Positions 24,924 through 55,627 of a stretch of DNA of 64,000 bases are shown here, one piece after another (the first letter of the stretch is position 1; each line of letters starts with the position of its first letter). Source of the stretch: an uncultured Acidobacteriota bacterium. GTDB lineage: Bacteria; Acidobacteriota; Thermoanaerobaculia; Multivoradales; UBA5704. The notes below the pieces were generated by a model, which saw only the letters and a program-made list of their open reading frames with translations, had not been told where the DNA came from and did no database searches. Location: assembly GCA_963770895.1 (NCBI GenBank), contig CAVYRF010000002.1:64001-128000 (forward strand). Direction: 5' to 3'. Made by a program: the position numbers and the translations under genes.

Positions 24924-26630
<1,707 letters not shown>

Positions 26631-26656
<26 letters not shown>

Positions 26657-27290
26657 TGCTTATCTCCTCAAAAAGCTGCCGCAGCAGCTGCGGGTCCTTT
26701 TTGCCGGGAGCCGATTCCACGCGGGAGCATACGTCAACCGCGTACGGCCGGAGCGTCGCGACCGCCTGCCGCACGTTGTGCGGCCCCAGCCCGCCTGCCA
26801 GAAATACGCGCCTGCCGGCTTCGCCGGCCAACACCGCCGCCAGCCGCCCGTAGTCCCACGCCCGGCCGCTGCCGCCGTAGACCGGCGCGCCGCCGCCGAT
26901 CGCGGGGGCGTCGAACAGCACCCCCCAGCAGGATGCGAACGCCGGCGGGACGGCGGCGGGCGATCGCAGCGCCTTGATGGAGCGCCCGGCGTGGGGCGCC
27001 ACCAGAGCCGCCGGCTCGTCGCCGCTGAACTGCAGCAGGTCCAGGTCGGCGGCGTCCTGTGCGGCCTCCAGCTGGGCGGCGGTGGGATGCACGAAGACGC
27101 CGACCACCATGATGCGCGGCGACACCGCGCGCGCCGCGGCGGCAATCTGGCGCGCGCGGGCGGCGTCGACGCAGCGCGGGCTGCCGGGCCAGAAGTTGAG
27201 ACCCAGAAAGCCCGCCCCCAATTCCGCGGCCAGCGCCGCCGACGCCGCATCGGCGACGCCGCAGATCTTGACCGCGACCGGCGGCGTCAT
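26631..27290 (-). CDS. trpF: Phosphoribosylanthranilate isomerase
   Basis: [27 protein letters not shown]. Confidence 0.93.
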
Positions 27291-28225
27291 CGCGCCGTCA
27301 CCCCGTCGCGCTGCCCACCGGCGCCGGCGCCGCCACCGCAAAGCGCGGCCAGAGCGGCGGCGGGATCGGCGGCCAGCAGCAGCGATTCGCCGACCAGCAG
27401 CGCGTCGAAGCCGCTGTCGGCGAGCAGCGCCACGTCCAGGGCATCGCGGATGCCGCTTTCGGCCACCTTGACCGCACCCGGCGGCAGCGCCGGCAGCAGC
27501 GCGATCGAGCGCTCCAGGTCGACCGAGAAATCCCGCAGGTCGCGACTGTTGATGCCGACCAGCTCCCAGGGCTCGCCGGCCAGCTTCGCCACGTCCGCCG
27601 CGTCGTGCGTCTCGACCAGCGGCACCAGGCCCAGCGCGCGCGCCTGGCCGGCCAGCCGCGCCAGGTCGTCGGGTTCGAGCAGCGCCGCGATCAGCAGCAC
27701 GGCGGCGGCGCCGGCGCGCTGCGCCCACAGCAGTTGCAGCGGGTCGACCACAAAATCCTTGGCGACCGCCGGCAGCCCGGCGGCCTCTGCGCAGGCGGTC
27801 AGCAGCTCGTAGCTGCCGTGAAAAAAGTCGGGCTCCACCACCACCGACAGCGCCGCGGCGCCGCCGGCCCCGTAGAGCCGCGCCTGCGCCAGCGGTTCGA
27901 CCCGGCCGTGCAGGGAACCCAGACGCGGCGAGCCCATCTTCACCTCGGCGATGATCGCCGGAAGCGCCGGGGTCGCCGGGAGCTCCAGGGTCTCCGACTC
28001 CTCCAGGAGCGTCGAGGGCAGCGGCGCCGCCGGGGCACCCCTCGAGCCGGCGGCCAGCGCCGCCAGGAAGGTATTGTCGCGCGCCGACACCGGCGGGCCC
28101 TGGCCCAGCCCATCGGCCGCCGCGGCGTCATCGGGCCGGTCGCGCCGCGCCTCCCGCAGGCGCTCGCGGCGGCGCAGGGCGATGCGCCGCAGGATGTCGG
28201 GCACGGCGGCGTCGCCGGCGCTCAC
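27287..28225 (-). CDS. trpC: Indole-3-glycerol-phosphate synthase
   Basis: IIAEVKMGSP, KDFVVD, GINSRDL, AESGI, LVGESL; GTG start. Confidence 0.94.
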   Translation of the reverse strand: MSAGDAAVPDILRRIALRRRERLREARRDRPDDAAAADGLGQGPPVSARDNTFLAALAAGSRGAPAAPLPSTLLEESETLELPATPALPAIIAEVKMGSPRLGSLHGRVEPLAQARLYGAGGAAALSVVVEPDFFHGSYELLTACAEAAGLPAVAKDFVVDPLQLLWAQRAGAAAVLLIAALLEPDDLARLAGQARALGLVPLVETHDAADVAKLAGEPWELVGINSRDLRDFSVDLERSIALLPALPPGAVKVAESGIRDALDVALLADSGFDALLVGESLLLAADPAAALAALCGGGAGAGGQRDGVTAR

Positions 28226-29328
28226 GCCAGGAATCTCACCAGCTGGAAGAGCTTGTCGGCCGCCTCGCCGGACGTCAGCGCCTCGCGTGCCCGCTCGACG
28301 CCCGCGGCCAGGTCGGGGACCAGGCCGGCGACGTAGAGCGCGGCGCCGGCGTTGAACACCGTCACGTCGGCCAACGCCCCGGTGCCGCTCGCCAGCAGCT
28401 CGCGCATCAGGGCGGCGTTGTGGTCGGGGCCGCCGCCGGTCAGCTCGGCCAGGGTGGCGCGCCGCAGGCCGAAAGTTTCGGGCTCCAGGGTGTAGCAGCG
28501 GACCTCCCCCTGGCGCACCTCGCACACTTGGGTCGTGCCGGTGGTGGTGATTTCGTCCAGGCCGTCGTGCCCATGCACCACCAGGGCGTGCTCGCTCCCC
28601 AGCTCGGCCAGCACCCGGCCGATCGGCTCGACCAGCGCCGCGGCGTAGACGCCCATCAGCTGGCGGCGGGCGCCCGCGGGGTTGGTCAGCGGCCCCAGGA
28701 CGTTGAACACGGTGCGCAGCGCCAGCTCGCGCCGCACCGGCATCACCTCGCGCATGCCGGGGTGGAAGTAGGGGGCGAACAGGAAGCAGATCCCCACCTG
28801 TTCCAGGGCGCGGCCGGCGTTGGCCGGGTCCTCGTCGAGCCGCACGCCGAGCGCCGCCAGCACGTCGGCGCTGCCCGAGCGGCTGGACACCGACCGGTTG
28901 CCGTGCTTGGCGACCGGCGCGCCGGCGGCGGCGGCGACCAGCGCCGCGGCGGTCGAAATGTTGAACGTGCCGGCGCCGTCGCCGCCGGTGCCGCAGGTGT
29001 CGACGACCCCCGCGCGGACATGGGGGATGGGCGTCGCGCGCTGCCGCATCGCCGCCGCGGCGCCGGCGATCTCGGAGACCGATTCGCCCTTCATGCGCAG
29101 CGCCACCAGCAGCGCGGCCTTCATCGTGTCGCTCAGCTCGCCGTCGATCATGCGGCCGAACAGCAGCTCGGCTTCCTGGCGGTCCAGGCTCTGCCCCAGG
29201 GTGATGCGGCGCAGCGCATCGCGGGGCTCCTGCTGCGGCGGCACCGGGGAGGGCGCGGCGACCGCGGCGGGAGACGCGGGCTCAGCGGGCCGGGCAGCAG
29301 CGGCGGACGGGTCGGGGTTGTCGGCCAT
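28222..29328 (-). CDS. trpD: Anthranilate phosphoribosyltransferase
   Basis: DTCGTGGDG, NISTA, KHGNRSVSS, GLDE. Confidence 0.96.
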   Translation of the reverse strand: MADNPDPSAAAARPAEPASPAAVAAPSPVPPQQEPRDALRRITLGQSLDRQEAELLFGRMIDGELSDTMKAALLVALRMKGESVSEIAGAAAAMRQRATPIPHVRAGVVDTCGTGGDGAGTFNISTAAALVAAAAGAPVAKHGNRSVSSRSGSADVLAALGVRLDEDPANAGRALEQVGICFLFAPYFHPGMREVMPVRRELALRTVFNVLGPLTNPAGARRQLMGVYAAALVEPIGRVLAELGSEHALVVHGHDGLDEITTTGTTQVCEVRQGEVRCYTLEPETFGLRRATLAELTGGGPDHNAALMRELLASGTGALADVTVFNAGAALYVAGLVPDLAAGVERAREALTSGEAADKLFQLVRFLA

Positions 29329-29332
29329 GGTG

Positions 29333-29525
29333 GGGGTCTCAGGGTCTCGGGGTCTCGGGGTCTCAGGGTCTCAGGGTCTCGGGGTCTCAGGGCCTCAGGG
29401 TCTCAGGGTCTCGGGGTCTCAGGGTCTCGGGGTCTCAGGGTCTCGGGGTCTCGGGGTCTCAGGGTCTCGGGGTCTCAGGGGCTCGCTGGTCTCAGGGGCT
29501 CGGAGGCACAGGGTCGATGGGTCTC
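29333..29525 (+). repeat. Tandem 8-bp (A/G)GGGTCTC repeat: 18 near-perfect units (29333-29476) plus about 5 degenerate
   Basis: Direct reading; fills the whole trpG-trpD intergenic gap. Confidence 0.95.
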
Positions 29526-30096
29526 AGGCGCGGCAGATCGCCAGGAAGTTGGCGATCAGGCCGGGACCGGCGCCGGTCAGGATCGATTCGGGGTGGAACT
29601 GCAAACCGAAGTGAGGCAGCTCGCGATGGCGCAGGCCCATCACCTCGCCGTCGTCCTCGCTCCAGGCGGTGGCCGCCAGCTGCGGCGGCAGCGAATCCTG
29701 GCGCACCGCCAGGCTGTGGTAGCGCGTCGCCTCGAAGGGCTGCGGCAGGCCGGCGAAGATCCCTTCGCCGTCATGCCGCACCATCGAGGTCTTGCCGTGC
29801 ATCGGGCGGGCGGCGCGCTCGACCGTGGCACCGCACGCAACCGCCAGCGCCTGGTGGCCCAGGCAGACGCCCAGCAGCGGCAGCGGCGGCGCGCGGCGGA
29901 TCAGCTGGACGCACAGGCCCGCCGCCTCGGGGCGGCCGGGGCCCGGCGACACCACGATGCCGCGCGGCCGGCGCGCCAGCAGGTCGTCGACCGCCAGCGC
30001 GTCGTTGCGCACCACCTCCACCTGCTCGCCGGCGCCGGCCAGCATCTGCACCAGGTTGAAGGTGAACGAATCGTAGTTGTCGATCACCAGGATCAT
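29524..30096 (-). CDS. trpG: Anthranilate synthase component II (glutamine amidotransferase)
   Basis: IDNYDSFTFN, SPGPG, GVCLGHQ, QFHPES. Confidence 0.95.
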   Translation of the reverse strand: MILVIDNYDSFTFNLVQMLAGAGEQVEVVRNDALAVDDLLARRPRGIVVSPGPGRPEAAGLCVQLIRRAPPLPLLGVCLGHQALAVACGATVERAARPMHGKTSMVRHDGEGIFAGLPQPFEATRYHSLAVRQDSLPPQLAATAWSEDDGEVMGLRHRELPHFGLQFHPESILTGAGPGLIANFLAICRA

Positions 30097-31544
30097 TGCC
30101 GCTCTCCGCGCTCTTCCAGGGCATCGGCCAGCGCCACCGCCGCCAGCATCGCCGCCGCCTTGCTCTCCGTTTCGCGCTCCTCGGCGGCGGGGTCGGAGTC
30201 GGCGACGATGCCGGCGCCGGCGGTGACCGAGGTCTCAGCCGCACCCACCGTCAGGGTGCGGATGGCGATGCAGGTATCGACGTCGCCGGAATACGAAAGA
30301 TAGCCGATCGCGCCGGCATACGGGCCGCGCGCCTCGGGCTCCAGCGCATCGATGATCTGCATGGCGCGGATCTTCGGCGCTCCCGACACGGTACCCGCCG
30401 GAAAGCACGACAGCAGCACGTCCAGCCCGTCGCGATCGCCGGCCAGGTCCGCCTCGACGCCCGAAACCAGGTGCATGACATGGCTGTAGCGCTCCACCTC
30501 CATGAAGGTGGGCACCCGCACGCTGCCCGGCGCCGCCACCCGCCCCAGGTCGTTGCGCCCCAGGTCCACCAGCATCACGTGCTCGGCGCGCTCCTTGGCG
30601 TCGGCCAGCAGGTCCGCCGCCAGCCGCTGGTCCCCCGCCTCGTCGGCGCCGCGCGGCCGGGTGCCGGCGATCGGACGCGCCGTGAGATGCCGGCCCGTCT
30701 TGCGCACCAGCATCTCGGGCGAGGCGCCGACCAGCGCCACCTCCGGCGCCTCCAGCAGCACCATGTACGGGCTCGGGTTGACCCGCCGCAGCGCCCGGTA
30801 CAGCGGCAGCGGCGCCACCCGCCGCGGCACGCGAAAGCGCCGCGCCAGCACCACCTGGAAGATGTCGCCGGCCGCGATGTGCTCCTTGGCGGTGCCGACC
30901 GCGCGGCGGTAGGCGGCGCCGTCCAGGCCGGCGATCTCGAACTCCGGCGGCCCCGGCGCGGCGGCCGGCATGGCGACGCCGCCGCCGGCGCCGGCCGCGG
31001 TCAGCAGCCGCTCCAGCCGCTCCAGCTCGCGCTCGGCGGCGACGGCGCTGACCTGGTCTTCGATTTCGTTGGCGATCGCCAGCACGCGCTGGTACGCATG
31101 GTCGAAGATCACCAGGTTGTCGAAGCGCGCCAGCAGGGCGATCGGCCAGCCGAACGGATCGGCCGGGCGATCCGGCAAGCGCTCCAGCAGGCGCACCATG
31201 TCGTAGCCGAAATAGCCCACCAGCCCGCCGGTGAACGGCACCGGTCCGGGCGCCGCGGAGACCTCCGCCAGCACCGCGCGCAGCGCCGCCAGCGGCTCGC
31301 CTGCCAGCCGCCGCCGGCGGCCGTCGCGCTCGGCCTCCAGGCGGTCCGGGTACAGCCGCAGCACCTCGCTCGGCCCGGCGCCCAGGAAGCTGAAGCGGGA
31401 CACGCGCTGGCCGCCCGTCACGCTCTCGAACAGAAACCGGCAGCCCGGCGTCTCCGCCGCCAGCCGCCGGTAGGCCGAGAGCGGCGTCAAACTGTCCGCC
31501 AGCAGCTCGCGTACGTGCGGCGTCGCCCGCCGCGGACCGCTCAT
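30093..31544 (-). CDS. trpE: Anthranilate synthase component I
   Basis: FLFES, GDIFQVV, NPSPY, KERAEHVMLVDLGRND, GAPKIRAM. Confidence 0.95.
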   Translation of the reverse strand: MSGPRRATPHVRELLADSLTPLSAYRRLAAETPGCRFLFESVTGGQRVSRFSFLGAGPSEVLRLYPDRLEAERDGRRRRLAGEPLAALRAVLAEVSAAPGPVPFTGGLVGYFGYDMVRLLERLPDRPADPFGWPIALLARFDNLVIFDHAYQRVLAIANEIEDQVSAVAAERELERLERLLTAAGAGGGVAMPAAAPGPPEFEIAGLDGAAYRRAVGTAKEHIAAGDIFQVVLARRFRVPRRVAPLPLYRALRRVNPSPYMVLLEAPEVALVGASPEMLVRKTGRHLTARPIAGTRPRGADEAGDQRLAADLLADAKERAEHVMLVDLGRNDLGRVAAPGSVRVPTFMEVERYSHVMHLVSGVEADLAGDRDGLDVLLSCFPAGTVSGAPKIRAMQIIDALEPEARGPYAGAIGYLSYSGDVDTCIAIRTLTVGAAETSVTAGAGIVADSDPAAEERETESKAAAMLAAVALADALEERGERQ

Positions 31545-32335
31545 CGCCCAGGCCTCGCCGCCGCCGGCGCCGGCTGGCTGTCGCCCGCCGCTGCGGCGGG
31601 CGACGAATCATGGCCGTCCGGCGCGGCGCCGGGGGCGGCGCCGAAGTGCCGGCGGGCCAGCTCCGCCGCCAGCTGCGCCGGCTCGACGCCGCTGGCGGCC
31701 AGCAGCACCAGCAGGTGGAACAGCAGATCGCTGCCCTCGGCGACCAGCTCGCCGCGGCGTTCGGGCGCGGCGGCCGCCGCGAGCGCCGCCACCACCACCT
31801 CGACCGCCTCCTCGCCCACCTTTTGCGCCATCCTGTCGGTGCCGGCGGCGAACAGACGCGCCGTGTAGCTCTGCTCCGGATCGGCATGCCGCCGGGCGCC
31901 GATCACCTCCGCCAGCCAGCCCAGCTCCAGCGCCGCGGCGTTCGGCTCGAAGCAGCTGCGGCTGCCGCGGTGGCAGGTCGGCCCGGCGGGACGCGCGCGC
32001 ACCAGCAGGGAATCCTGATCGCAATCGGCGATCACCTCGACGACCGCCAGCGTATGTCCGGAAGTCTCCCCCTTGCGCCACAGCCGCCCGCGCGAACGGC
32101 TCCAGAAGTGCGCCTGGCCGGTCGAGATCGTCAGCTCCACCGCCTGCCGGTCGGCAAAGGCCAGCATCAACACGGCGCCCGTCGCCACGTCCTGCACCAC
32201 CACCGGAATCAACCCGCGATCGTCGTAGCGCAGCGCGGCGGCGTCCACCGCGCCCGGCACGGCGGCAGGGGTAGGGGTAGGGGTAGGCGTAGGCGTAGGG
32301 TCAGAGGCAGGGGCGGGCACGGAAGCAGGACTCAT
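31541..32335 (-). CDS. hisIE: Bifunctional PR-AMP cyclohydrolase / PR-ATP pyrophosphatase
   Basis: WSRSR..LWRKGETSG, DCDQD, CHRG..SCF, KVGEE. Confidence 0.95.
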   Translation of the reverse strand: MSPASVPAPASDPTPTPTPTPTPAAVPGAVDAAALRYDDRGLIPVVVQDVATGAVLMLAFADRQAVELTISTGQAHFWSRSRGRLWRKGETSGHTLAVVEVIADCDQDSLLVRARPAGPTCHRGSRSCFEPNAAALELGWLAEVIGARRHADPEQSYTARLFAAGTDRMAQKVGEEAVEVVVAALAAAAAPERRGELVAEGSDLLFHLLVLLAASGVEPAQLAAELARRHFGAAPGAAPDGHDSSPAAAAGDSQPAPAAARPGR

Positions 32336-33123
32336 GGCGTGGCCTCGCGGACGGGGAAGCCGGCGGCGGCCAGGGCGCGCTTCACCTCGCCGACGGTGTG
32401 GGTGCCCTGGTGAAAGATGGACGCGGCCAGCACGGCGGCCGCGCCGGCGGCAAGGGCGGCGGCCAGGTGGGCCGGCTCGCCGGCGCCGCCGGAGGCGATC
32501 AGCGGCACGGGACAGACGGCGGCGGCGGCAGCCAGCAGCTCCAGGTCGTAGCCGCCGCGCGTGCCGTCGTGGTCGATGCTGGTCAGGAGCACCTCGCCGG
32601 CGCCGGCGGCAAGGCCCGAGCGCAGCCAGTCCAGGGCCTCCAGGTCGGTCGGCGTGCGGCCGCCGGACACCACCACCTGCCAACCGCCGCCGGCCCGGCG
32701 CCGCGCGTCGATCGACAGCACCACGCACTGGCTGCCAAATCGGTGTGCCAGCTCGCCGATCAGGGCGGGCCGGCGGACCGCCGCGGTGTTGACCGCCACC
32801 TTGTCGGCGCCGGCCCCCAGCAGCCGTGCCGCATCCGCGACGGAGCGCACGCCACCGCCGACGGTGAGCGGAATGAACACCTGCTCGGCGGTGCGCTCGA
32901 CCCAGGCGATGTCGTTGTCGCGACCTTCCGGCGAGGCGCTGATATCGAGGAAGACGATCTCGTCGGCCCCCTGCGCGGCATAGCGCGCGGCGGCCTGGGC
33001 CGGGTCTCCCTGGTCCACCAGGTCGCGAAAGCGCAGCCCCTTGACCACGCGCCCGTCCGCCACGTCCAGGCAGGGGATGACGCGCCGGGTGAGCCCGGTG
33101 GGGCCGGGCGTCGCGGCCTTCAT
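32332..33123 (-). CDS. hisF: Imidazole glycerol phosphate synthase cyclase subunit
   Basis: RVIPCLDV, VVKG, LTVGGG, DGT, IASGGAG. Confidence 0.96.
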   Translation of the reverse strand: MKAATPGPTGLTRRVIPCLDVADGRVVKGLRFRDLVDQGDPAQAAARYAAQGADEIVFLDISASPEGRDNDIAWVERTAEQVFIPLTVGGGVRSVADAARLLGAGADKVAVNTAAVRRPALIGELAHRFGSQCVVLSIDARRRAGGGWQVVVSGGRTPTDLEALDWLRSGLAAGAGEVLLTSIDHDGTRGGYDLELLAAAAAVCPVPLIASGGAGEPAHLAAALAAGAAAVLAASIFHQGTHTVGEVKRALAAAGFPVREATP

Positions 33124-33926
33124 CCTGGTCCGGCCCCCGCCGGGGTGGAATTGGCGTTGGGTTTGGCGTCGGCGGTGGTGTCGGTGCCGGCGTTGCCGGC
33201 GCAGGCGGCAAGGGCCGCGGCCAGGTCGATTTCGTGCTCGTACAGGGCGCGGCCCAGGATCACGCCGGCCAGGTCGGGGCAGGCCGCCGCGGCGAGCAGG
33301 TCGGCAACGTTGCGCACGCCCCCCGACAGCAGGGCGGGCAGGCCGGTCGCCGCGGCCACATCGCGGGCCAGGGCCAGGTTGGGACCGCCCAGCATGCCGT
33401 CGCGCTCGATGTCGGTGACCAGCACCGCCGGGCAGGGCAGCCCGCGCAAGTGCCCGCAGACGTCGGCCAGCACGCGGTCGGAGGGGCGGGTCCAGCCCGC
33501 GACGCGCACCTCGCCACCAGCCGTCTCCACCGCCGGCACCAGCCGCCCGGGCAACGCCAGCGCCAGCTCGGCAAAGCGTTCCGGCTCGCGCGCCGGCATC
33601 GACCCCAACACCACCCGCTCGCATCCCGCCGCCAGCGCCCATTCGACCGCTGCACGGTCGCGCAACCCACCGCCCAGCTGCACCCCCGCGCGGCCGCCAT
33701 CGCCCTGGCCCACCGCCGCCAGGATCCGCAACAGCAGGTCGCGCTGGGGCGGCTCGCCAAACGCGGCGTCCAGGTCCACGATGTGGATGCGGCGGGCGCC
33801 GGCGCGCACAAAGCCGGCGGCGACGGCCGCCGGATCGCCGGGGTACAGCGTCGAGCGCAAGGCGTCGCCCTGCCGCAGGCGGGCGACGCGCCCCTGACGC
33901 AGATCAATCGCCGGCAGCAGGTCCAC
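33120..33926 (-). CDS. hisA: ProFAR isomerase
   Basis: LLPAIDL, HIVDLD, QLGGGLR, TDIERDG, GRALY; GTG start. Confidence 0.94.
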   Translation of the reverse strand: MDLLPAIDLRQGRVARLRQGDALRSTLYPGDPAAVAAGFVRAGARRIHIVDLDAAFGEPPQRDLLLRILAAVGQGDGGRAGVQLGGGLRDRAAVEWALAAGCERVVLGSMPAREPERFAELALALPGRLVPAVETAGGEVRVAGWTRPSDRVLADVCGHLRGLPCPAVLVTDIERDGMLGGPNLALARDVAAATGLPALLSGGVRNVADLLAAAACPDLAGVILGRALYEHEIDLAAALAACAGNAGTDTTADAKPNANSTPAGAGPG

Positions 33927-34614
33927 TCGCCATCTCCAAGTAGTTGTCCAGCAGCCGCAATCCGGCGCTGCCGCTGCGCTCGGGATGAAACTGCGTCCCC
34001 AGCACCCGCCCTCGCCCCGCCACCGCCACAAACGTCCGCCCATGCGTCGCGCGCGCCAGGCACGTTTCGTCGGCCGCCTCGTCAGGGGCATAGCTGTGCA
34101 CAAAGTAGACGTAGCACCCCTGGCCCGGCCCCCCGGCTGCCCCGCCGTGCGAGCCGAGGCCGGCGAGCAGGGGGTGGTCCGCCAAGTCGTGCAGCCGGTT
34201 CCAGCCGATGTGCGGCACCGGCACGCAGCCGGGCAGGCGGGTGACACGCCCCGGCAGCAGGGCCAGGCCGTCGGTGATCCCGAACTCCTCGCCGGCCTCG
34301 AACAGCAGCTGAAAGCCGACGCAGATCCCCAGCAGCCAGGCGCCTTCCGCCAGCGCCGCGCGCAGCGCCGCCTCCAGCCCCCCACGCAGGGCGTCCCGCG
34401 GCGGCGCGAACGCCCCCACTCCCGGCAGCACCAAACAGCGCGCCGCGGCCACCCGCGCCGGATCGCGCGTCACCGTCACACCGGCGCCCAGGTGGGCCAG
34501 AGCCCGCGCCAGGTTGCCCAGATTGCCGACGCCGGCATCGATCACCGTCACCCGCCGCGCCGCAGCCGCGGCGGCGGCGGCGCCCGGCGAGTCACTCTGG
34601 CCGGCCGCGCTCAT
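33904..34614 (-). CDS. hisH: IGP synthase glutaminase subunit
   Basis: LPGVG, GICVG, PHIGWN, YFVHSY, QFHPE. Confidence 0.95.
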   Translation of the reverse strand: MSAAGQSDSPGAAAAAAAARRVTVIDAGVGNLGNLARALAHLGAGVTVTRDPARVAAARCLVLPGVGAFAPPRDALRGGLEAALRAALAEGAWLLGICVGFQLLFEAGEEFGITDGLALLPGRVTRLPGCVPVPHIGWNRLHDLADHPLLAGLGSHGGAAGGPGQGCYVYFVHSYAPDEAADETCLARATHGRTFVAVAGRGRVLGTQFHPERSGSAGLRLLDNYLEMASGPAAGD

Positions 34615-36554
34615 GCGGTCAGCGTCCCCTTCGTGCTCGGCACGTCGGCGCCTGGCGTGGCACCCGCCGCCGCCGGCCGCAGCGCCACGGCCTGGCGCAG
34701 GGCCAGCGCGACGGCCTTGAAGGCGGCTTCCGCCGCGTGATGGCCGTTGCGCGCGGCCAGGATCTCCAGGTGCAACGTGAGGCGGCCACGGTCGGCGAAC
34801 GCCTGAAAGAAATCCGCTACCAATGTCAGCGGAAACTCCGCCGTCACCCACGCCGCGGCCATGTCGCGCGGCGCGCTGTAGTGGAAAAAACCTCGCCCCG
34901 AAAGGTCCACCACCGCGCGCGCCAACGCTTCGTCCAGCGGCGCATAGGCGGTGCCGAAACGCACCAGCCCGCGGCGGCCGCCCAGCGCACCGTCCAACGC
35001 CTGCCCCAACGCGATGCCGACGTCTTCGACCGTGTGATGCAGATCGACGTGCAGGTCGCCCTGGGCCTCCACCTCCAGCCCCAGGCCGCCATGCGTCGCC
35101 AGCGCCTGCAACATGTGACCGAAGAACCCGTTCGCCGCCGCGATCCGGCGCGGCCCCCCGTCCAACTTCAACACCAGCCGCACCCGCGTTTCACCCGTAG
35201 CGCGCTCCACCGTCCCCTGTCGCGCCGCCGGCGCTCCCGCCGTCGCAGCGGCGGCTTCCGCCGGCGCGGGATGAACGGGGCCAGCACTCTGGCCTACTCC
35301 CATTTGCCCGCCGATCGGGCTCTCCACCGTTCCGGGCAGCGCCGCCGCCCCCCCGCCACCGCCGACCATCCCTACACTTTTGCCGGCAGCCTCGCGGCCA
35401 GCTCCGTAGGCGACCACGGCCTGCCCTTCACCACCTTGGCCAGATACCGCGACCGGTTCGGCGCCCGCGCCCCCCGCCGGCAGCAGCTCGGCGAGGGCTT
35501 GGCGGGTGGCGCGCAGGGCGGCGCCGCTGCCGATCGAGATGCGCAGGGCGCCGTCCAGGCCGGGATTGGCACCCACGTCGCGCACGCGGATGCCGCGCGC
35601 CGCCAGGCCGTCGCGCAGGGCTGCCGCGGCGGCGGCGCTGCCGCACCGCACCAGCAGGAAGTTGGCTTCGGATGGCAGCACCTGCAAGCCGGCGGCTTGC
35701 AGCATGAACTGCCATTGGGCGCGGCGGGCGACCACCAGGGAGATGCGCCGCCGGGCGGCTGGCGCCGCGGCCAGCACGGCTCTGCCGGCGAGCACCGCCG
35801 GGACGCCCACGTTGTAGGGCAGCTTGACCTTCAGCAGCTCGGCCACCAGCCGCGGATCGGCCAGCAGGTAGCCCAGCCGCAGGCCGGCCAGCGCCCACGC
35901 CTTCGAGAAGGTGCGCAGCAGGATCAGGTGCGGATGGCGCGCCAGCAGCGGCCGGTAGTCGAAGCGGCAGAACTCGCCGTAGGCGTTGTCGAGCAGGAAC
36001 GGCCCCTCCTGCCGCGCCGCCAGCGCGTCGATCGCTTCCGGCGGCGGCGCGTCGCCGGTCGGATTGTTGGGCGCGCACAGCAGGAGCGGCCGGCGCGGGT
36101 CGCGCGCCACCTCGGCCTCCAGCTCCGCCAGCGGCAGGCGCAGCCCCGCCGCCGGCGGCAGGAAGCGCGGCACGCCGCCCGCCTTCAGCACCAGCATGCG
36201 GTACAGGGCGAAGCTCGGCTCGTAGCCCACCACCTCGCTGCCGGGCGCCACCAGCGCCGACAGGCAGACGTCCAGCAGCTCGTTGGAGCCGTTCCCCACC
36301 AGCACTCCCGCCGCCGGCCAGCCGTGCAGCTCCCCCAGGTCGCGGCGCAGCGCCTCGGCGTGAAAATCGGGATACCGCGCCCAGGCAGCGGCGCGCAGCG
36401 CGTCCGCCACCCGCCGCTTGAGGCCCGGCGGCGGCTCGAACGGCGCTTCGTTCTGGTCGAGCTTGTGGCGGCACGGGGACAGGTCCAGCGAGTAGGCGCG
36501 CAGCTGGCGCAGCTCGCCGCGCACCAGGCTTGCGGGATCGGCGCCCGCCTTCAT
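34611..36554 (-). CDS. hisC: Fused histidinol-phosphate aminotransferase (HisC) and imidazoleglycerol-phosphate dehydratase (HisB)
   Basis: GNGSNE, PNNPTG, RTFSKA..AGLRLG, then a Gly/Ala linker, then GFFGHML, DLHHTVED, NGHHAAEAAFKA, PSTKG; no stop between domains. Confidence 0.9.
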   Translation of the reverse strand: MKAGADPASLVRGELRQLRAYSLDLSPCRHKLDQNEAPFEPPPGLKRRVADALRAAAWARYPDFHAEALRRDLGELHGWPAAGVLVGNGSNELLDVCLSALVAPGSEVVGYEPSFALYRMLVLKAGGVPRFLPPAAGLRLPLAELEAEVARDPRRPLLLCAPNNPTGDAPPPEAIDALAARQEGPFLLDNAYGEFCRFDYRPLLARHPHLILLRTFSKAWALAGLRLGYLLADPRLVAELLKVKLPYNVGVPAVLAGRAVLAAAPAARRRISLVVARRAQWQFMLQAAGLQVLPSEANFLLVRCGSAAAAAALRDGLAARGIRVRDVGANPGLDGALRISIGSGAALRATRQALAELLPAGGAGAEPVAVSGQGGEGQAVVAYGAGREAAGKSVGMVGGGGGAAALPGTVESPIGGQMGVGQSAGPVHPAPAEAAAATAGAPAARQGTVERATGETRVRLVLKLDGGPRRIAAANGFFGHMLQALATHGGLGLEVEAQGDLHVDLHHTVEDVGIALGQALDGALGGRRGLVRFGTAYAPLDEALARAVVDLSGRGFFHYSAPRDMAAAWVTAEFPLTLVADFFQAFADRGRLTLHLEILAARNGHHAAEAAFKAVALALRQAVALRPAAAGATPGADVPSTKGTLTA

Positions 36555-37873
36555 CCGAGCCTCCGGCGGGCCGCCGCGGCATGCGCCGGCAGCCCCTCCG
36601 CGTCGGCAAGGCAGGCCGCCGCCTCGGCCCAGCGCGCCGCGGCCGCCGGCGAGAAACGCACGGCATGGCTGCGGCGCAGAAAATCCTCCACGCCCAGCGC
36701 CGACGCGAACCGGGCGCTGCCGCCGGTGGGCAGCACGTGGCTGGGTCCCGCCACGTAGTCGCCGAACACCTCGGACGTGGCCGCCCCCAGGAAGATCGCG
36801 CCGGCCGACCGCACCCGCCCGGCCAGCGCCTCGGCGCCGGCACCCACCAGCTGCAGATGCTCGGGCGCGATCTGCTCGACCAGCGCCAGCGCCTCGTCCC
36901 AGCCGGCGACCACCAGGGCGCAGCCCATGCCGGCCAGCGCCGCCCGCGCCGTGGCGGCGGTCGGCAGCGCCGCCAGCTGCGTCGCGACCGCGGCGGCGAC
37001 AAGCCGCGCCAGCTCGCGCTCCGGGGTGATCAGCACCGCCGCGGCCAGCGGATCGTGCTCCGCCTGCGCCAGCAGGTCGGCGGCGATCAGCGCCGGATCG
37101 GCGCCGGCGTCGGCCACAACCACCACCTCGCTGGGGCCGGCCAGGCCGTCGATCGCGACGTCGCCGGCCACCAGCCGCTTGGCGGCGGTCACCCAGGCGT
37201 TGCCCGGACCGACGATCTTGTCCACCCGCGGCAGCGACGCCGTGCCGTAGGCCAGCGCCGCCACCGCGTGGGCGCCGCCGATCCCCCACACCTCCTCGAC
37301 CTCCAGACGCGCCAAGGTGTACCGCAGCGCCGGGCTCGCCGCAAAACCCGCCGGCGGCGTCGCCACCACAATCTGAGCGACGCCTGCCAATCGCGCCGGC
37401 ACCACGGTCATCACCACCGTCGACGGATAGTTCGCCCGGCCGCCGGGGACGTAGATGCCGACCCGCCCGAGCGGCGTCACGCGCTCCTCCAGCTCCACGC
37501 CGTCGTCGCCGCCCGCCGGGCCCCCCGCCAGCCGGTAGCCCTGCCGCACCTGCGGCGCATGAAAGCGCTCGACCGCCGCGATCGCCCGCTCCAGCGCCTC
37601 GGCAAAGCCGGGCGGCAGCTGCCCGCGCACCGTTGCCGCCGCCGGTACGCTCAGCCGCAGCTCCGCTGCCCCCACCGCCGTCGCGCCGTCGAGCCGCCGC
37701 GCCAGGGCGAGCAGCGCCCGGTCGCCGCCGCCGCGCACCTTGTCGACGATCAGCGCCGCCTGGCGCAGCGTGCGCGCGTCGAGCACGCTGGCGCCGCGGC
37801 CGGCGATGGCCGCGATGCGCCGCCGGCCCGCCCGCGAGCCGGCCGCCACCACCTGTAGAGGTCCACGGCTCAT
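36551..37873 (-). CDS. hisD: Histidinol dehydrogenase
   Basis: YVPGG, KIVGPGN, AGPSE, QAEH, APEHL, GDYVAGPSHVLPT. Confidence 0.96.
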   Translation of the reverse strand: MSRGPLQVVAAGSRAGRRRIAAIAGRGASVLDARTLRQAALIVDKVRGGGDRALLALARRLDGATAVGAAELRLSVPAAATVRGQLPPGFAEALERAIAAVERFHAPQVRQGYRLAGGPAGGDDGVELEERVTPLGRVGIYVPGGRANYPSTVVMTVVPARLAGVAQIVVATPPAGFAASPALRYTLARLEVEEVWGIGGAHAVAALAYGTASLPRVDKIVGPGNAWVTAAKRLVAGDVAIDGLAGPSEVVVVADAGADPALIAADLLAQAEHDPLAAAVLITPERELARLVAAAVATQLAALPTAATARAALAGMGCALVVAGWDEALALVEQIAPEHLQLVGAGAEALAGRVRSAGAIFLGAATSEVFGDYVAGPSHVLPTGGSARFASALGVEDFLRRSHAVRFSPAAAARWAEAAACLADAEGLPAHAAAARRRLG

Positions 37874-38496
37874 GCCACCGCTCCCGCCGCCTCCAGGCGG
37901 TCCAACCAACCGTTGAGGCGCGCCCGGTGGCGCTGGAACGCCGCCCGGTTCACCACCAGGCAGGGCGTCACCGGCGCCACCGCCTCGATCTCCACCAGAC
38001 CATTGGCCGCCAGCGTGCCGCCGGTCTGCACGATGTCCAGCGCCAGGTCCGCCAGCTGCAGCACCGGCGCCAGCTCCACCGCGCCGGACAGGCGCACGAT
38101 CTCCGCCCCCCAGGCCCGCTCCGCCACCAGCCGCCGCGCCGTCAGCGGATACTTGGTGGCCAGCCGCACCTGCTCGCCGGCGCCCGGCAACGCCCTGGCG
38201 CGCCCGATCAAGGCAAAGCGGCTGCCACCGGCCGCCAACCGCGCCGGCACCAGCAGGTCGCGCCCCAGCTCGTCCAGTACGTCGCTGCCCACGATGCCGC
38301 AGTCGGCAATCCCATGCTCGACGTACAGCGGCAGGTCCCAATCCTTGAGCGCCAGCACCTCGACCTCGTCGTCTGGCAGCATCGTGCGCAGGCTGCGGCC
38401 GCTTTCCTCCAGACCGACCAGGCCCAGTCCCGCGGCGCGCAACGCCGCCACCGCCGTGTCCAGGTTGCGCCCCTTGGGCAGCGCCAGCCGAATCAT
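37870..38496 (-). CDS. hisG: ATP phosphoribosyltransferase, short form
   Basis: LALPKGR, ATKYP, GAVELAP, DIVQTGGTL; 208 aa. Confidence 0.95.
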   Translation of the reverse strand: MIRLALPKGRNLDTAVAALRAAGLGLVGLEESGRSLRTMLPDDEVEVLALKDWDLPLYVEHGIADCGIVGSDVLDELGRDLLVPARLAAGGSRFALIGRARALPGAGEQVRLATKYPLTARRLVAERAWGAEIVRLSGAVELAPVLQLADLALDIVQTGGTLAANGLVEIEAVAPVTPCLVVNRAAFQRHRARLNGWLDRLEAAGAVA

Positions 38497-38606
38497 CGGC
38501 CCACCTCCCCGCCGCCGCCGGCAACGGCGCCCACCGCGGCAGAAACGGCTGTTGCCACAGAGGCGGGAGCCGGCTTACGCCCCTTGGGCAATGCCGGCTG
38601 GATCAT
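38493..38606 (-). CDS. 37-aa chimeric HisG-N/HisZ-C bridge ORF created by a 110-bp duplication
   Basis: Manual translation MIQPALPKGRKPAPASVATAVSAAVGAVAGGGGEVGR; ATGA overlaps with the hisZ stop and the hisG start. Confidence 0.7.
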   Translation of the reverse strand: MIQPALPKGRKPAPASVATAVSAAVGAVAGGGGEVGR

Positions 38607-40144
38607 CGGCCCACCTCCTCGCCGCCGGCGGCAACGGCGCCCGCGGCGGTAGCGACGGTGGTGGCTGAGGTAGGAGGTGAAGGGCTGGCGGCGGAGGCTT
38701 CGGCAACCAGGACGCCGCAGCCGGCCTCCAGCAGCCCGTCCAGGTTGAGCGAAAATCCCACCGCGTCGATGTCGGCGCCCAGCGCCCGGAACAACCCGCC
38801 ATAACGGCCGCCGCCGCCCACCGGCACCGCCGCGGCGCCGGCGTAGGCATGAAACACCAGGCCGTCGTAATACGCCCGCGCGCCTGCTTCGCCAACCTCC
38901 CAGCTCACGCCGGCAAACTCCGCCAGGTCGACCCGCAGCGCCACCCGCGGAGCCAGCGCCGCCATTTCGTCCCGCAGCGCCAGCAGCCCCCGCAGCCGCG
39001 CCGCCGCCTCGGCTCCCAGGTCCTCCGGCCGCGCCGGCAGTCCGGTCTCCACCACCGGCAGCAGCACCGGGCAGGCCCGCCGCACGACGCTGCGCTCCCG
39101 CCGCGCCACCGCCGCGGCCACCGTCGCCGGCGACTCGCCCACCGCCGCCAGCAGCGCCGCATCCAGACAGCCCGCGAGTCCCATCACCACCTCCTTGGGC
39201 CCCGACGTGGCTTCCAGCGCGGCCAAAAACAGCGCCAGCACCTCGCGCTCGGCCTCGGCAACCGCCTGCCGGCCAGCGTCTCCCGGCACGCCACCGCCGG
39301 TGTCCGCATTGCTGGCCGCTCCCGCATCACCGCCAGCCCCCGCACCGCTTCCGGCGCTCACATCCCCAGCAGCCCTTGCAGCGCCAGCAGCACTTGGAGC
39401 GCCAGCGGCCCTTGCATCGCCAGCAGCCCTTGCATCGCCAGCAGCCCTTGCATCGCCAGCAGCACTTGCATCGCCAGCAGTCCTTGCATCGCCAGCAGCC
39501 CTTGCATCGCCAGCAGCCCTTGCATCGCCAGCAGCACTTGCATCGCCAGCAGCACTTGGAGCGCCAGCAGCACTTGGAGCGCCAGCAGCCCTTGCAGCGC
39601 CAATACGACCTGCATCGCTCGCAGACCTTGCGTCATGCGCAGCTATCACATCGCGTGCGGCACTCGCATCGCTGCCAGCCCTTGCATCACCCGCGCCGCC
39701 CGCTGGATCGCCCGCGCCCGCGGGGGTCGCCGCTGACAGGCGCTCGACGCCCAGCTGGTAGAGCTCCCGCCGCCAGCCGTTCGCCTCGCCGCGGCGCTCG
39801 CGATAGCGCACCACGTCGCCGCGGTACGACAACCGCAACGGCAGCGGCGGCCCCCCCGGCCCCCCCAGGCGCGGCGCGAGCAGGCGCGCCAGCATCGGCG
39901 TGAAGTCCGCGCGCAGCGCCAGCTGCTCACCGTCGCGGTCGATGAAGCGATACAACTCGTCGCGGCTCGCCGGCGTCAGCAACGCCTCGTAGGGCTCCAG
40001 GTAGTCCAGGATGGGCAGGATCGCCTCGGCGTAGCCGTGGCGTTCAACCAGCTCTGCCAGGTGCTGCTCCAAAGCGCGCCGCGCCCGCGCGCTCTCGAAA
40101 AGCAGCGCCACCACCCCGGTCGGCAGGGCAGCCGAAACCCTCAT
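38603..40144 (-). CDS. hisZ: ATP phosphoribosyltransferase regulatory subunit with internal repeat insertion
   Basis: LPTGV, LALRADFT, RELYQLGVE, YYDGLVF, GGGRY, AVGFS; precedes short hisG. Confidence 0.9.
   Translation of the reverse strand: MRVSAALPTGVVALLFESARARRALEQHLAELVERHGYAEAILPILDYLEPYEALLTPASRDELYRFIDRDGEQLALRADFTPMLARLLAPRLGGPGGPPLPLRLSYRGDVVRYRERRGEANGWRRELYQLGVERLSAATPAGAGDPAGGAGDARAGSDASAARDVIAAHDARSASDAGRIGAARAAGAPSAAGAPSAAGDASAAGDARAAGDARAAGDARTAGDASAAGDARAAGDARAAGDARAAGAPSAAGAARAAGDVSAGSGAGAGGDAGAASNADTGGGVPGDAGRQAVAEAEREVLALFLAALEATSGPKEVVMGLAGCLDAALLAAVGESPATVAAAVARRERSVVRRACPVLLPVVETGLPARPEDLGAEAAARLRGLLALRDEMAALAPRVALRVDLAEFAGVSWEVGEAGARAYYDGLVFHAYAGAAAVPVGGGGRYGGLFRALGADIDAVGFSLNLDGLLEAGCGVLVAEASAASPSPPTSATTVATAAGAVAAGGEEVGR
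39366..39599 (-). repeat. 13 x 18-bp in-frame tandem repeat encoding (AAGDAR/AAGAPS)n in hisZ
   Basis: Plus-strand unit CCAGCAGC(C/A)CTTG(C/G)A(T/G)CG. Confidence 0.95.
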
Positions 40145-40216
40145 GCCAACCCCATATCCAAGGGCCGCAACGATGGCTGTATCACCACCTGCAATATTGG
40201 ACGCAGAACAGGCTGC

Positions 40217-40253
40217 AAAAAGCAAAACCTCCTTCCGGGTCCCGGAAAGAGGT
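40217..40253 (-). terminator. Attenuator terminator hairpin upstream of hisZ
   Basis: RNA ACCUCUUUCCGG-GAC-CCGGAAGGAGGU followed by UUUGCUUUUU. Confidence 0.85.
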
Positions 40254-40309
40254 GGCGATGGGCTGCGGCGATCCTCGTCCCGGGGCGATTGCCGGGGCGA
40301 GAGCCCCGA

Positions 40310-40426
40310 TCAGCCGTGCGGCGGATGGACGTCGTGACGCCAAGTGCCAGCTTCCGCGGCGACCACGGACAGCGACAGCGAACCGCAAGCGGCCGCTGGG
40401 CACATGGACTTCACGGTCAGGCTCAT
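40310..40426 (-). CDS. Putative his-trp operon leader peptide
   Basis: MSLTVKSMCPAAACGSLSLSVVAAEAGTWRHDVHPPHG; one Trp and three His codons just before the stop. Alternative starts GTG 40435 and ATG 40405. Confidence 0.7.
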   Translation of the reverse strand: MSLTVKSMCPAAACGSLSLSVVAAEAGTWRHDVHPPHG

Positions 40427-40442
40427 CGTCGTCACGTTATCG

Positions 40443-40471
40443 ATCATAGCGACCCCAACGCAACGCGTCAA
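40443..40471 (-). promoter_or_regulatory. Sigma70 promoter of the his-trp operon
   Basis: TTGACG-17 nt-TATGAT. Confidence 0.82.
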
Positions 40472-40979
40472 ACCGGGGGGTGGTGTCCCAAAACTGTGTT
40501 GGCGCAAGGACACTATCCGCGGGTGCCGGTGGCGGTCGCCAGCGAGGCGCGACTCGGTGACAGGTGCCCATCGTCGCCGCAATGCCTTTGGGGGTGCTGC
40601 AGGGTGATGAGGGGATGCCGATACTCGCCGCCTGCCGAGCCTTCCAGACCGCTCATCGGCGGTCTCCGCGACAGGAGCGGCAGGTAGGGACTTGCCCCCG
40701 AGGCGTTCTCGGGCGCCCGTCACCGGCCAGCGGTCAAGGGTGCGACTTCACCGGCGCCCGCCACCGACCTGGGGAGAACGGCTCGGCAGGCGAAGCTCCC
40801 CCGGCCACCGGCCAGGACCGGCAGGCGGGTTTCGTCTCACATTTCGCCGCTGGTGCACGCCAGCCAACCGAGGCTTTCTTCTGGAAACGCAAGGCGGCAA
40901 TAGGTTAAAATCTATAAAACGCAAATCGGCGTTCGCTGCCAGGGACGCCAACAACGAATCGAGAAAAGGAGACGACTGC

Positions 40980-41240
40980 ATGAACCGCTCACGAAACCTC
41001 TTGCTGGGCGCGATGCTGGCCCTGATGGCGCTGGCGGGTTGGGCCCAAGTGCAAGCTCAGGGGTGTAGTTTGGTGTGCACCTGTGTGAAGCTATGTGGCT
41101 TCGACTACGCAAGTTGCGAAAGCGCTTGCAAGGGCGAAAAGACCTGTCTGGCCACCTGCGCCGCCAACCACGATGCTTGCGTGAGCAACTGCCAAAATGA
41201 CATCGAGGTAGCGAAATTGCCTACTGGCAAAACCAGATGA
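40980..41240 (+). CDS. Secreted 10-Cys small protein with CX3C repeats
   Basis: AAAGGAG RBS, signal peptide ending in AQVQA, mature CSLVCTCVKLC...CESAC...CLATC...CVSNC. Confidence 0.78.
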   Translation: MNRSRNLLLGAMLALMALAGWAQVQAQGCSLVCTCVKLCGFDYASCESACKGEKTCLATCAANHDACVSNCQNDIEVAKLPTGKTR

Positions 41241-41672
41241 CTTAAAAGAGACGAGTTACCGAATAACGGGATTTCTCGCAGGCCAGCGCTCGTGAAGGTG
41301 AGGTGCGCCTGTTCTCAGCCACGCCGCGGAGCTGCATTGAACGCTGTCCAGGTCGTGCGAGCGCTGCTGGTCGAGGAAATGAGCAGCTCCCACCCCAGTG
41401 GCCTGCCCGGTGAGCTCGCTTGCCATCCGCTCGCCCTCTGGCCCCCTGGCGGCGTTGCGACCTGCCGGAAGTGCCGGGACAGGCGACAGCCCCGGCCGCC
41501 TCCTCGACATATCCCTGCCATGCCTGCGCGCACCGCCGCCTGCAGCCTGTGCGCCGTCCCAGCCGGAGCTTCTTTAGGGCGCCCGGCGGGTAGTGGCGGT
41601 CACGTCTTGGCGACCTGGCGACACGAGAACTCGTGTACGCAGGAAAACGAAACCTACCCCAGGGAGTGCCAC

Positions 41673-41933
41673 ATGTCTCGATTCGCCTCTCTCCAGTCAC
41701 GTATTGCGCTTCTCCTCATTCTTGTCGCCGTCATCGCGGCGCTGGTGCTTCTCCCGGCGGCTCCAGCCGCGGCCTCTTCCCAATGCCCCAGCCGCTCCTG
41801 CCTGGTAACCGGCGCCATATACTTCAACGACGCCAACCACGATCAGGAGGTAGGCCAGTGCAGCTGCCAGCACTGTACAGGGGAGCAAACCGCCTACTGG
41901 CAGTCGGTCCCGGCCTGCTGCCCCTGCACGTAG
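41673..41933 (+). CDS. Secreted Cys-rich small protein, DUF6289-like
   Basis: GGGAG RBS, signal peptide, YFNDANHDQEVG..C...CTGEQTAY motif. Confidence 0.72.
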   Translation: MSRFASLQSRIALLLILVAVIAALVLLPAAPAAASSQCPSRSCLVTGAIYFNDANHDQEVGQCSCQHCTGEQTAYWQSVPACCPCT

Positions 41934-42094
41934 CACGACAGTTTACTGACGGGGGTCGGGCTCGGCTCACCGGTCGTGTCCTGGTATGAAACGACCGCCG
42001 CTCGCCGTCGAGGCCGCGACGGCCCAGCCGCCCTCGTCCTGCTTGGCTGCGGTAGCGTCCTGTTGGGACAGCACCCAAGACGTGGTGCTGTCCT

Positions 42095-42229
42095 AAATCA
42101 CGTCCCGCTCGCACCAGCTCCACCAGCTGGCGGCGAAACTCCGCGGCGCACGGCGCTCGGTGTCTCTGTGGCATCGTGGACTCCTCTCTCCCAAATCATG
42201 GGGTTGTCCACGAAACCGGGGTAACTCCA
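42095..42229 (-). mobile_element. IS3-family left-end remnant
   Basis: IRL-like TGGAGTTACCCCGGTTTCGTGGACA, GAGGAG RBS, truncated OrfA MPQRHRAPCAAEFRRQLVELVRAGR; inner boundary approximate. Confidence 0.72.
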
Positions 42230-42328
42230 CATCTGGCGCGGGATGATCTCCGCCCCACCAGCCATCCTCGTCGGTGATTGAACCCTGTCGCTACGTCTTG
42301 TAGTATTCTCGCCAGGAGGTATTTAAAA

Positions 42329-42688
42329 ATGCGCAAATACCATTTGGCTGTGGTGCTTGCAGGGCTCTGTGGGCTCGCCGGGGCGTTCGGCGGTGCCGCC
42401 CACGCCGCGAGCGGTCCCATGTCGCCGGCACCGGCGCCGACCGCGGACACGCTGGCCCCGTGGCTTCATCCAGCCCTGAATATGACTCAGTCTTGCCAGC
42501 AGATTCCCAATCTGCCCGCGCCAACGCGGCTGATCTGCGGCACCACCAGCGTGCCCACCTCCTGCGTCGGCAAGGTCATCTACAACGCCATCTGCGGCAT
42601 CGGCGCCGGCGGTTACTGCCTTTATTGCTGGCAGGGCGACGGGCCGCCCGACGACTTCGGCAATTATCCCTGCGACTGCCGCAACTAG
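42329..42688 (+). CDS. Secreted Cys-rich small protein, probable paralogue of 15494-15868
   Basis: AGGAGG RBS, signal peptide, Pro linker, CG..S.P..C.G...N..CG.G...C...CxC. Confidence 0.78.
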   Translation: MRKYHLAVVLAGLCGLAGAFGGAAHAASGPMSPAPAPTADTLAPWLHPALNMTQSCQQIPNLPAPTRLICGTTSVPTSCVGKVIYNAICGIGAGGYCLYCWQGDGPPDDFGNYPCDCRN

Positions 42689-42936
42689 CACCGCGGCAAG
42701 ATCGGGTCTGGAAGGGCGGCGCCGCCCTCGCGTCCCTGGCGCAGGGCGGCGGAGCCGCAGGCCCGGCCACCGCCCTGCTCGTCACGCTCAGGGACCTGGC
42801 GGCCCCTGCATCCGCTCCAACCGCTGTTCGCGCCACCCGACCCAGGAAGAGCGGCACCGGCGGCGGTCAGGCGCGATCGACACATGATTGCGCACATTGT
42901 TTATTTATGAATGCAGCTATCTGAAAAGGAGAGGAT

Positions 42937-43428
42937 ATGCGTCGCTTTGCCCTGCTTGTTGTGGCCCTCGCCCTCGTCGCCGCCGGTCCCGCCGCCGCGG
43001 TCAACGTCTACTGGACCTCGGTCGGGTCGGCGGGCACCGTCGATCCCACCAGCGTCGTGCCGTTCTACAACGGCGCCGCCATCGAATACCCCACCACTTC
43101 CGCGGCGGAGCAGCCGATCATCGTCCGCTACAACGTCACCGATACCAACCTGAACAACGATCCGGGCTGGACCACCCTGGAAGTCGGCACCGCCGGTATC
43201 GCCGCCACGGACACCGTGCAGGTCACCCTCTTCGCGGTCGGCATGTGCAGCGAAACCCTCACCGCGCTCTGCTCGGTCACCATCACCGGTGGGCCCATCT
43301 GCCCGGCCGAATGCCAGTTCAGCTCGTCCGCCTTCGACTTCAGCAGCCACGCCTACTTCATCGAGGCCGTGCTGAGCCGTACCAGCACCTCGGTCAACCC
43401 GCAGCTGTTCTACCTGAGCATCCACTAA
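42937..43428 (+). CDS. Secreted beta-rich hypothetical protein (4 Cys)
   Basis: AGGAGAGG RBS, signal peptide, genome-typical codon usage. Confidence 0.8.
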   Translation: MRRFALLVVALALVAAGPAAAVNVYWTSVGSAGTVDPTSVVPFYNGAAIEYPTTSAAEQPIIVRYNVTDTNLNNDPGWTTLEVGTAGIAATDTVQVTLFAVGMCSETLTALCSVTITGGPICPAECQFSSSAFDFSSHAYFIEAVLSRTSTSVNPQLFYLSIH

Positions 43429-55552: not shown

Positions 55553-55627
55553 TGGCACCGGTGGTTGGATTTGAACCAACGACCCCCTGATCCACAGTCA
55601 GGTGCTCTCCCCCTGAGCTACACCGGC
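55553..55627 (-). tRNA. tRNA-His(GUG), non-canonical acceptor stem
   Basis: Full cloverleaf: acceptor GCCGGTG/CACCGGT, D-arm GCTC/GAGC, anticodon arm CCTGA-CTGTGGA-TCAGG, T-arm GTTGG-TTCAAAT-CCAAC, G73, encoded CCA. Confidence 0.96.

Follow-up and report, generated by a model that had tools for sequence, protein, structure and literature searches.

The stretch of DNA analysed here (the window, 64,000 nt in length) comes from a Thermoanaerobaculia-like acidobacterium and carries a long set of his and trp genes on its minus strand. The genes follow one another on this strand in the order hisZ, hisG, hisD, hisC, hisB, hisH, hisA, hisF and hisIE, and then trpE (start 31544), trpG, trpD, trpC, trpF, trpB and trpA (end 24069). 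The start codon assigned to hisZ (ATG 40144) aligns with the hisZ starts of relatives, and 4-nt start/stop overlaps join trpE to hisIE as well as trpG to trpE. Upstream of hisZ, the same strand carries a promoter-like sequence, a short ORF with Trp and His codons near its end, five RNA segments that can pair in alternative ways and a T tract (Table 1).

Table 1. Features of the leader and of the operon behind it in the window. Helix energies are in kcal/mol, and the medians are those of 30 distinct sequences.
Feature	Position	Strand	Remarks
-35-like hexamer TTGACG	40466..40471	(-)	promoter scan
-10-like hexamer TATGAT	40443..40448	(-)	promoter scan; spacer 17 nt
Leader ORF, 41 codons from GTG 40435	40310..40435	(-)	stop TGA 40312..40310
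Trp codon UGG, codon 32	40340..40342	(-)	aligned Trp codons in 35/36 leaders
His codons CAC 40336..40334, CAU 40327..40325, CAC 40318..40316	40316..40336	(-)	Pro-Pro between second and third
Segment 1	40303..40309	(-)	5' arm of hairpin 1:2; begins 1 nt past stop
Segment 2	40292..40302	(-)	3' arm of 1:2; alternative partner segment 3
Segment 3, CCCGGGACGAGG	40273..40284	(-)	antiterminator segment; partner segment 2 or 4
Segment 4	40241..40252	(-)	terminator 5' arm and antiterminator 3' arm
Segment 5	40227..40239	(-)	terminator 3' arm
T tract TTTGCTTTTT	40217..40226	(-)	
Helix 1:2	40309..40303 with 40298..40292		UCGGGGC/GCCCCGG; -13.1 folded in window; median -10.1
Helix 2:3	40302..40292 with 40283..40273		10 pairs and one C/A mismatch; -15.9 in window; median -16.0
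Helix 3:4	40284..40273 with 40252..40241		11 pairs around one unpaired position; -18.5 in window; median -17.3
Helix 4:5 (terminator)	40253..40227	(-)	12 pairs, loop of 3, then TTTGCTTTTT; -19.7 in window; median -16.8
Controlled genes hisZGDCBHAF-IE then trpEGDCFBA, 16 genes	24069..40144	(-)	Pfam, ORF coordinates

The promoter-like pair TTGACG-17-TATGAT (40471..40443, minus strand) has 10 of 12 matches, and the scan of positions 39500..41500 returned two promoter-like sites, compared to 0.2 +/- 0.5 in shuffled sequences. The leader frame read from GTG 40435 to its TGA is ...GTWRHDVHPPHG, with the C-terminus ...G-T-W-R-H-D-V-H-P-P-H-G before the stop; further in-frame starts within the ORF are the ATG codons at 40426 and 40405, and no Shine-Dalgarno sequence is evident for this ORF. 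In the same 2-kb region, four terminator-like sites were found against 1.4 +/- 1.3 in shuffles. The promoter, ORF tail, hairpin, antiterminator segment and terminator with its T tract, which had been claimed in a preliminary description of this locus, all proved to be correctly placed. The window thus shows three hallmarks of an attenuator, namely an ORF with codons for the pathway products upstream of the operon, an intrinsic terminator in between and an antiterminator whose formation excludes the terminator.

We examined the conservation of the leader by means of a HisG-anchored scan of species-representative genomes, which gave 80 loci. Of these, 43 are from other phyla and 37 are from Acidobacteriota, the latter (HisG 53-81% identical) bearing mostly the labels Thermoanaerobaculia or Candidatus Multivorans. 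A covariance model of the leader, R1, which was built from 12 leaders, matched at full length once in the window and once in each of 35 of the 37 acidobacterial loci (E 3e-31 to 2e-4), the other two (L007 and L022) having too little upstream DNA. There was no full-length match in the 43 non-acidobacterial loci, where the best E was 0.56. In the window and in three relatives (L001, L012 and L013), the leader is intergenic and lies directly before hisZ; in the other relatives, the homologous element, found by a motif search and then by R1, lies about 1.5-1.8 kb upstream of hisZ. A promoter-like pair, TTGACG-18-TATCAT, is also present in L001, the closest relative. Across the family, 91.9% of the cells of the terminator helix are paired, and the T tract is weak or missing in L013, in L015 and in the 'Multivorans' group.

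An arrangement due to chance, or an ordinary terminator that ends a transcript from upstream and lies beside the his promoter, would be in keeping with the richness of high-GC DNA in hairpins and with the fold of the whole leader, which is only mildly unusual (z just -2.04; 8 of 200 shuffles at least as stable). However, the promoter is situated upstream of the terminator and not downstream, and the whole unit is kept in 36 genomes at the same place relative to the operon. It is mainly because of this conservation in relatives that the leader appears to be more than a product of chance, and we give this alternative hardly any credence.

The element was absent from the RNA families of Rfam that we searched: a cmscan of positions 38000..43000 with E up to 1 gave no match to His_leader, Trp_leader or T-box, and the whole window, searched at gathering scores, contained tRNA alone and no known cis-regulatory family. 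A sub-threshold match to radC RNA at 41987..42153 on the plus strand (21.4 bits compared to a gathering score of 40, E = 0.47) is probably due to chance.

The preliminary description had suggested looking at the conservation of the Trp and His codons in homologous leaders. For each of the 36 leaders (the window and 35 loci), we counted the 12 codons preceding the stop that lies beside segment 1. At least two His codons occur in this tail in all 36 leaders, and at least one Trp together with at least two His codons in 35 of the 36, which bears out the expected conservation. Trp (1-3 codons) always comes ahead of His (2-4 codons), and the last regulatory codon usually lies 3-4 codons ahead of the stop, which itself is separated by 1-6 nt from the segment 1 core in every leader. 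There are 24 distinct tails, such as GWRGHAHHHSVN, VWAWRGVHHHHGLT, TWWAWLHHLHGE and SWWAHGHGKG, in which the residues in between differ, and His is encoded by CAC 51 times and by CAT 23 times in the 26 distinct DNA tails. Given the background in the proteins of the operon itself (W 0.64%, H 1.8%), the chance of such a Trp and His tail is about 0.0014 for one independent sequence. The RNAalifold consensus leaves every base of the Trp and His codons unpaired and contains no conserved 'segment 0' that would pair with them, and hence the conservation of these codons is best explained by their decoding. The number of Trp codons and their spacing shift while the neighbouring residues turn over, which points towards a selection for the Trp codons themselves. 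The regulatory content of the window leader, with one Trp and three scattered His codons, is weak.

The single exception to the combined tail is L061 (Candidatus Multivorans azotirespirans, 7289..7413), where the promoter region runs straight into the stretch of the leader that holds the His codons. Segments 1-5 are intact there, but the 5' part of the ORF, with its start, has been lost together with the Trp codons. This leader reflects either a deletion in nature or an artefact of the assembly.

Three further properties of the leader peptide were considered. It had been proposed that the Pro-Pro pair could add a dependence on EF-P; Pro-Pro occurs in 1 of the 36 leaders, that of the window, and this was rejected as a feature of the family. 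Tyr and Phe were likewise rejected as additional inputs of the family, as Tyr is present in 2 of the 36 tails and Phe in none. In the two leaders concerned, Tyr codons stand amid the Trp and His codons (L011, 7419..7558, ...TWWYGVHHYVQD; L017, 7040..7178, ...WWHGRVHHYGH), which hints that a third aromatic input may be read in some lineages. As to a leaderless start of translation, also raised earlier, the GTG of the window lies 7 nt past the -10 hexamer and the ATG of L001 lies 6 nt past its own, which fits leaderless translation and makes it plausible in these two; the other leaders with a clearly found promoter have a 5' UTR of 20-47 nt, and the proposal does not extend to them. The automatic finding of promoters is noisy, the result being clear in the window, L001, L008, L017 and the 'Multivorans' group only, and the assignment of the start codon in the window, a GTG at about +1 that lacks a Shine-Dalgarno sequence, is uncertain.

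We then compared the organization of the controlled genes. In all 30 of the acidobacterial loci that are long enough, trpE follows hisIE, compared to none of the 43 non-acidobacterial loci. The gap between hisIE and trpE is at most 71 nt in 25 of the 30 loci and equals -4 in 12 of those, the estimates for the remaining five being unreliable owing to frame or assembly problems. A second attenuator ahead of trpE was considered and rejected, since there is no second R1 match ahead of trpE in the window or in the 35 loci and no room for one between hisIE and trpE. In 32 of the 36 loci, a fused aroD-aroE gene stands between the leader and hisZ; in the window, aroDE is found at 55733..57211 (minus strand), about 15 kb from the leader.

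These observations bear on the question of whether the attenuator could respond to His alone, in which case the Trp codons would simply have been inherited or would have some other role, and regulation of the trp genes would take place elsewhere, for instance by an internal promoter or by feedback only. His codons do outnumber Trp codons in many leaders (for example, four to one in L002, L012 and L013), the window has a single Trp codon, and internal promoters are possible as far as the sequence goes. Against this stand the occurrence of Trp in 35 of the 36 leaders despite its rarity in the proteins of the operon, the variation in Trp number and spacing amid residue turnover at bases that RNAalifold leaves unpaired, and the overlap or short distance between hisIE and trpE in most loci together with the lack of any second leader found there. 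We therefore consider a His-only attenuator to be unlikely. The comparison instead supports the earlier proposal that a fused his-trp operon is served by one leader peptide in which regulatory codons for Trp and for His are combined.

Pairing among the five segments can give rise to four helices that overlap one another (1:2, 2:3, 3:4 and 4:5), all of which are conserved. The elements listed in the preliminary description were right, but helix 2:3, formed by the 3' arm of hairpin 1:2 and the 5' arm of the antiterminator, had been overlooked. On a model-guided alignment of 30 distinct rows (A5), many of them from one clade, the state 1:2+3:4 has 92.7% of its cells paired and the state 2:3+4:5 has 94.6%, and when the partners were slid by 1-3 columns as a control, pairing dropped to 36-66%; the antiterminator helix 3:4 taken by itself is paired in 92.4% over the 30 distinct sequences. 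Compensatory changes were seen at 3 of 18 pairs (13 cells) for 1:2+3:4, for example G-C to A-U at the base of 1:2, and at 5 of 18 pairs (8 cells) for 2:3+4:5, where, for instance, U-A is replaced by C-G in 2:3, and C-G by U-A in 4:5. As most pairs are invariant and the sequences are related, this covariation is supportive and not decisive. Although A5 was fitted to 1:2+4:5, the consensus that RNAalifold itself derives from it is 2:3+4:5, which is independent backing for helix 2:3. This helix would be the one that ties the position of the ribosome to the terminator.

From these parts we infer translation of the ORF, a kinetic order of folding and a response to starvation. When amino acids are plentiful, the ribosome that reaches the stop codon would cover segment 1 and so free segment 2 for segment 3; with 2:3 formed, segment 4 would be left to segment 5, the terminator would form and transcription would end at the T tract. 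When Trp or His is short, the ribosome would be held more than about three codons upstream of the stop and hairpin 1:2 would stay; with 1:2 intact, segment 3 would take segment 4 once this is made, the terminator would not form, and the polymerase would be expected to read through from hisZ to trpA. A ribosome is taken to cover about 12-13 nt past the first base of the A-site codon. With this value, Trp-32, His-34 and His-37 of the window fit the geometry of such a stall, and His-40 is too near to the stop, as a ribosome there overlaps part of segment 1. As one Trp and three His codons lie near the end of the peptide, a shortage of either charged tRNA should raise read-through, in the manner of an OR gate.

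The folding of the alternative structures, which had been put forward as a check, confirmed that the helices are present, but the equilibrium fold is insensitive to the position of the ribosome. When ribosome footprints were masked, terminator pairing in the window was 0.90-0.91 at all 17 positions; in relatives, it was 0.98 in L001 and 1.00 in L012, and in L013 the terminator was weak everywhere (0.00-0.24). In transcripts ending before segment 5, the antiterminator was the lowest-energy fold at nearly every position, the stop codon included. Equilibrium folding thus neither shows nor contradicts a switch and is useful as a map of the helices. Since it reveals no dependence on the ribosome, a switch would have to operate through co-transcriptional kinetics, which we assume. 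As 1:2 is less stable than 2:3, displacement of segment 1 by segment 3 might occur even without a ribosome.

This insensitivity to the ribosome could also point to a terminator/antiterminator switch run by a factor acting in trans. This factor could be a protein that binds RNA, a small molecule or, as in T-box leaders, uncharged tRNA, and the ORF would then be incidental; the RNA segments are indeed far more conserved than most of the peptide. However, the Rfam search between 38000 and 43000 returned no known family, T-box included, even at E up to 1, the ORF ends immediately ahead of segment 1 in all 36 leaders with Trp and His enriched in that frame only, and the His codons vary synonymously, so that we regard a trans-acting factor as very unlikely. 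The geometry of the five segments raises a further alternative: as any stall more than about three codons ahead of the stop would keep 1:2, the position of the stall would not be critical, and the leader might be a general sensor of translation rate, in which any slowing of the leader ribosome, by amino-acid shortage or stringent conditions, gives read-through with no weighting of Trp and His. The specific and conserved enrichment of precisely the two product amino acids of the operon argues against such a sensor, which we hold to be highly improbable.

In our judgement, the best explanation is a ribosome-dependent (leader-peptide) transcription attenuator with Trp-or-His input ahead of the 16-gene his-trp operon, for which we estimate a probability of about three in four. 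A fuller version, in which a two-input Trp/His OR gate acts across a class on an (aroDE-)his-trp super-operon of 16-17 genes, the terminating ribosome triggers termination and the regulatory codons lie outside the helices, is put forward tentatively, its probability being a little short of even. According to this OR-gate version, a stalled ribosome, or no ribosome at all, would keep the antiterminator path open.

Leader-peptide attenuation is a textbook mechanism, described mostly in Proteobacteria, in Actinobacteria and in a few Firmicutes. The his leader of Salmonella and E. coli forms helices A:B, C:D and E:F or, alternatively, B:C and D:E, and we take segments 1-5 to correspond to its segments B-F. 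Like hisL, the acidobacterial leader combines a short ORF containing His codons with an intrinsic terminator, and its helices overlap in a chain of which every second member would form; here too, a ribosome reaching the stop would favour the terminator. It differs from hisL, which contains a run of seven His codons, in having 2-4 His codons with Trp codons added, in belonging to another phylum and in the lack of an Rfam match. It also lacks, in the RNAalifold consensus, a conserved segment A over the regulatory codons, and hence a stalled ribosome would exert its effect by stopping short of segment 1 and not by masking, whereas stalling in the classical his and trp leaders hides a segment of the RNA beneath the ribosome. 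With trpL of E. coli, the leader shares 1-3 Trp codons near the end of a short peptide, which are often followed by Arg, as in trpL itself, and the choice between terminator and antiterminator. Unlike trpL, it has five segments instead of four, contains His codons too and has no match in Rfam, and it controls the his genes first, the trp genes forming the distal half of the operon.

Attenuators that respond to several amino acids are known from E. coli, namely the thr leader (Thr and Ile) and the ilvGMEDA and ilvBN leaders (Ile, Leu and Val codons). As in these, several pools of charged tRNA would be read by one leader peptide; but while the thr and ilv leaders serve connected pathways, Trp and His come from separate pathways, which both use PRPP and are linked here by the fusion of their operons only. 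A common leader for the two pathways would thus follow from their genes lying in a common operon. The aromatic supraoperon of Bacillus subtilis (aroFBH-trpEDCFBA-hisC-tyrA-aroE) resembles the acidobacterial unit in the physical linkage of aro, trp and his genes, the latter unit opening with aroD-aroE in the 32 loci mentioned. The two differ in that the supraoperon contains one his gene instead of all of them and in that the Bacillus trp genes are under the TRAP protein and not a leader peptide. His leader peptides ahead of hisZ/hisS paralogues have been described in bacilli (PMC2965389), and these too have a leader ORF with His codons before hisZ, outside the Proteobacteria; unlike the leader described here, they are reported as His-only, belong to Firmicutes and have no trp genes in the unit. 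According to that work, almost no acidobacterial attenuators have an assigned function (PMC2965389), and in a second paper, Acidobacteria figure in the statistics of leader-gene spacing only (PMC4833913).

A search of full-text literature, a scope that leaves aside older attenuator surveys in subscription journals, returned neither a combined His and Trp leader nor this acidobacterial operon. We regard the leader as a real, conserved and hitherto uncatalogued attenuator family with a combined Trp and His input, which presumably works by the mechanism outlined above. It adds a conserved RNA family that Rfam lacks, from a class whose members are little studied and for the most part uncultured, and it is a natural case of regulation tracking gene order, in which fused operons are preceded by one leader with the codons for both end products. 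If this is correct, starvation for His or for Trp alone should derepress both pathways. Such joint derepression would be a cost that the organism seems to accept, which bears on the evolution of super-operons, and the leader would represent a ready-made design for a two-input sensor.

Some further features were observed at these loci. In L013, the 3' arm of the terminator abuts the start codon of hisZ directly (9000..9024) and is accompanied by a poor T tract, and L015 has no T tract (1690..1710); in these two, the hairpin may act on translation initiation or may require other factors. In the window, about 100 nt separate the aroD-aroE gene from a tRNA-His(GUG) gene downstream of it (55553..55627, minus strand), and tRNA-His genes are also found near the operon in L013 (5251..5328) and in L002 (2922..2998), a placement that may reflect conserved synteny or a tRNA-associated insertion which separated aroDE from the his genes. 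Just past the trp genes of the window, a sigma-54-dependent response regulator (receiver, AAA+ and Fis-type HTH) is encoded on the plus strand (20807..22222). Lastly, the hisZ gene of the window contains an in-frame 18-bp tandem repeat (39361..39631, minus strand; 13.4 copies, 91% matching), which encodes a low-complexity insert of some 160 residues, rich in Ala, Gly, Asp and Arg, that separates the conserved N-terminal part from the conserved C-terminal one; in the hisZ of relatives, these two parts almost adjoin each other.
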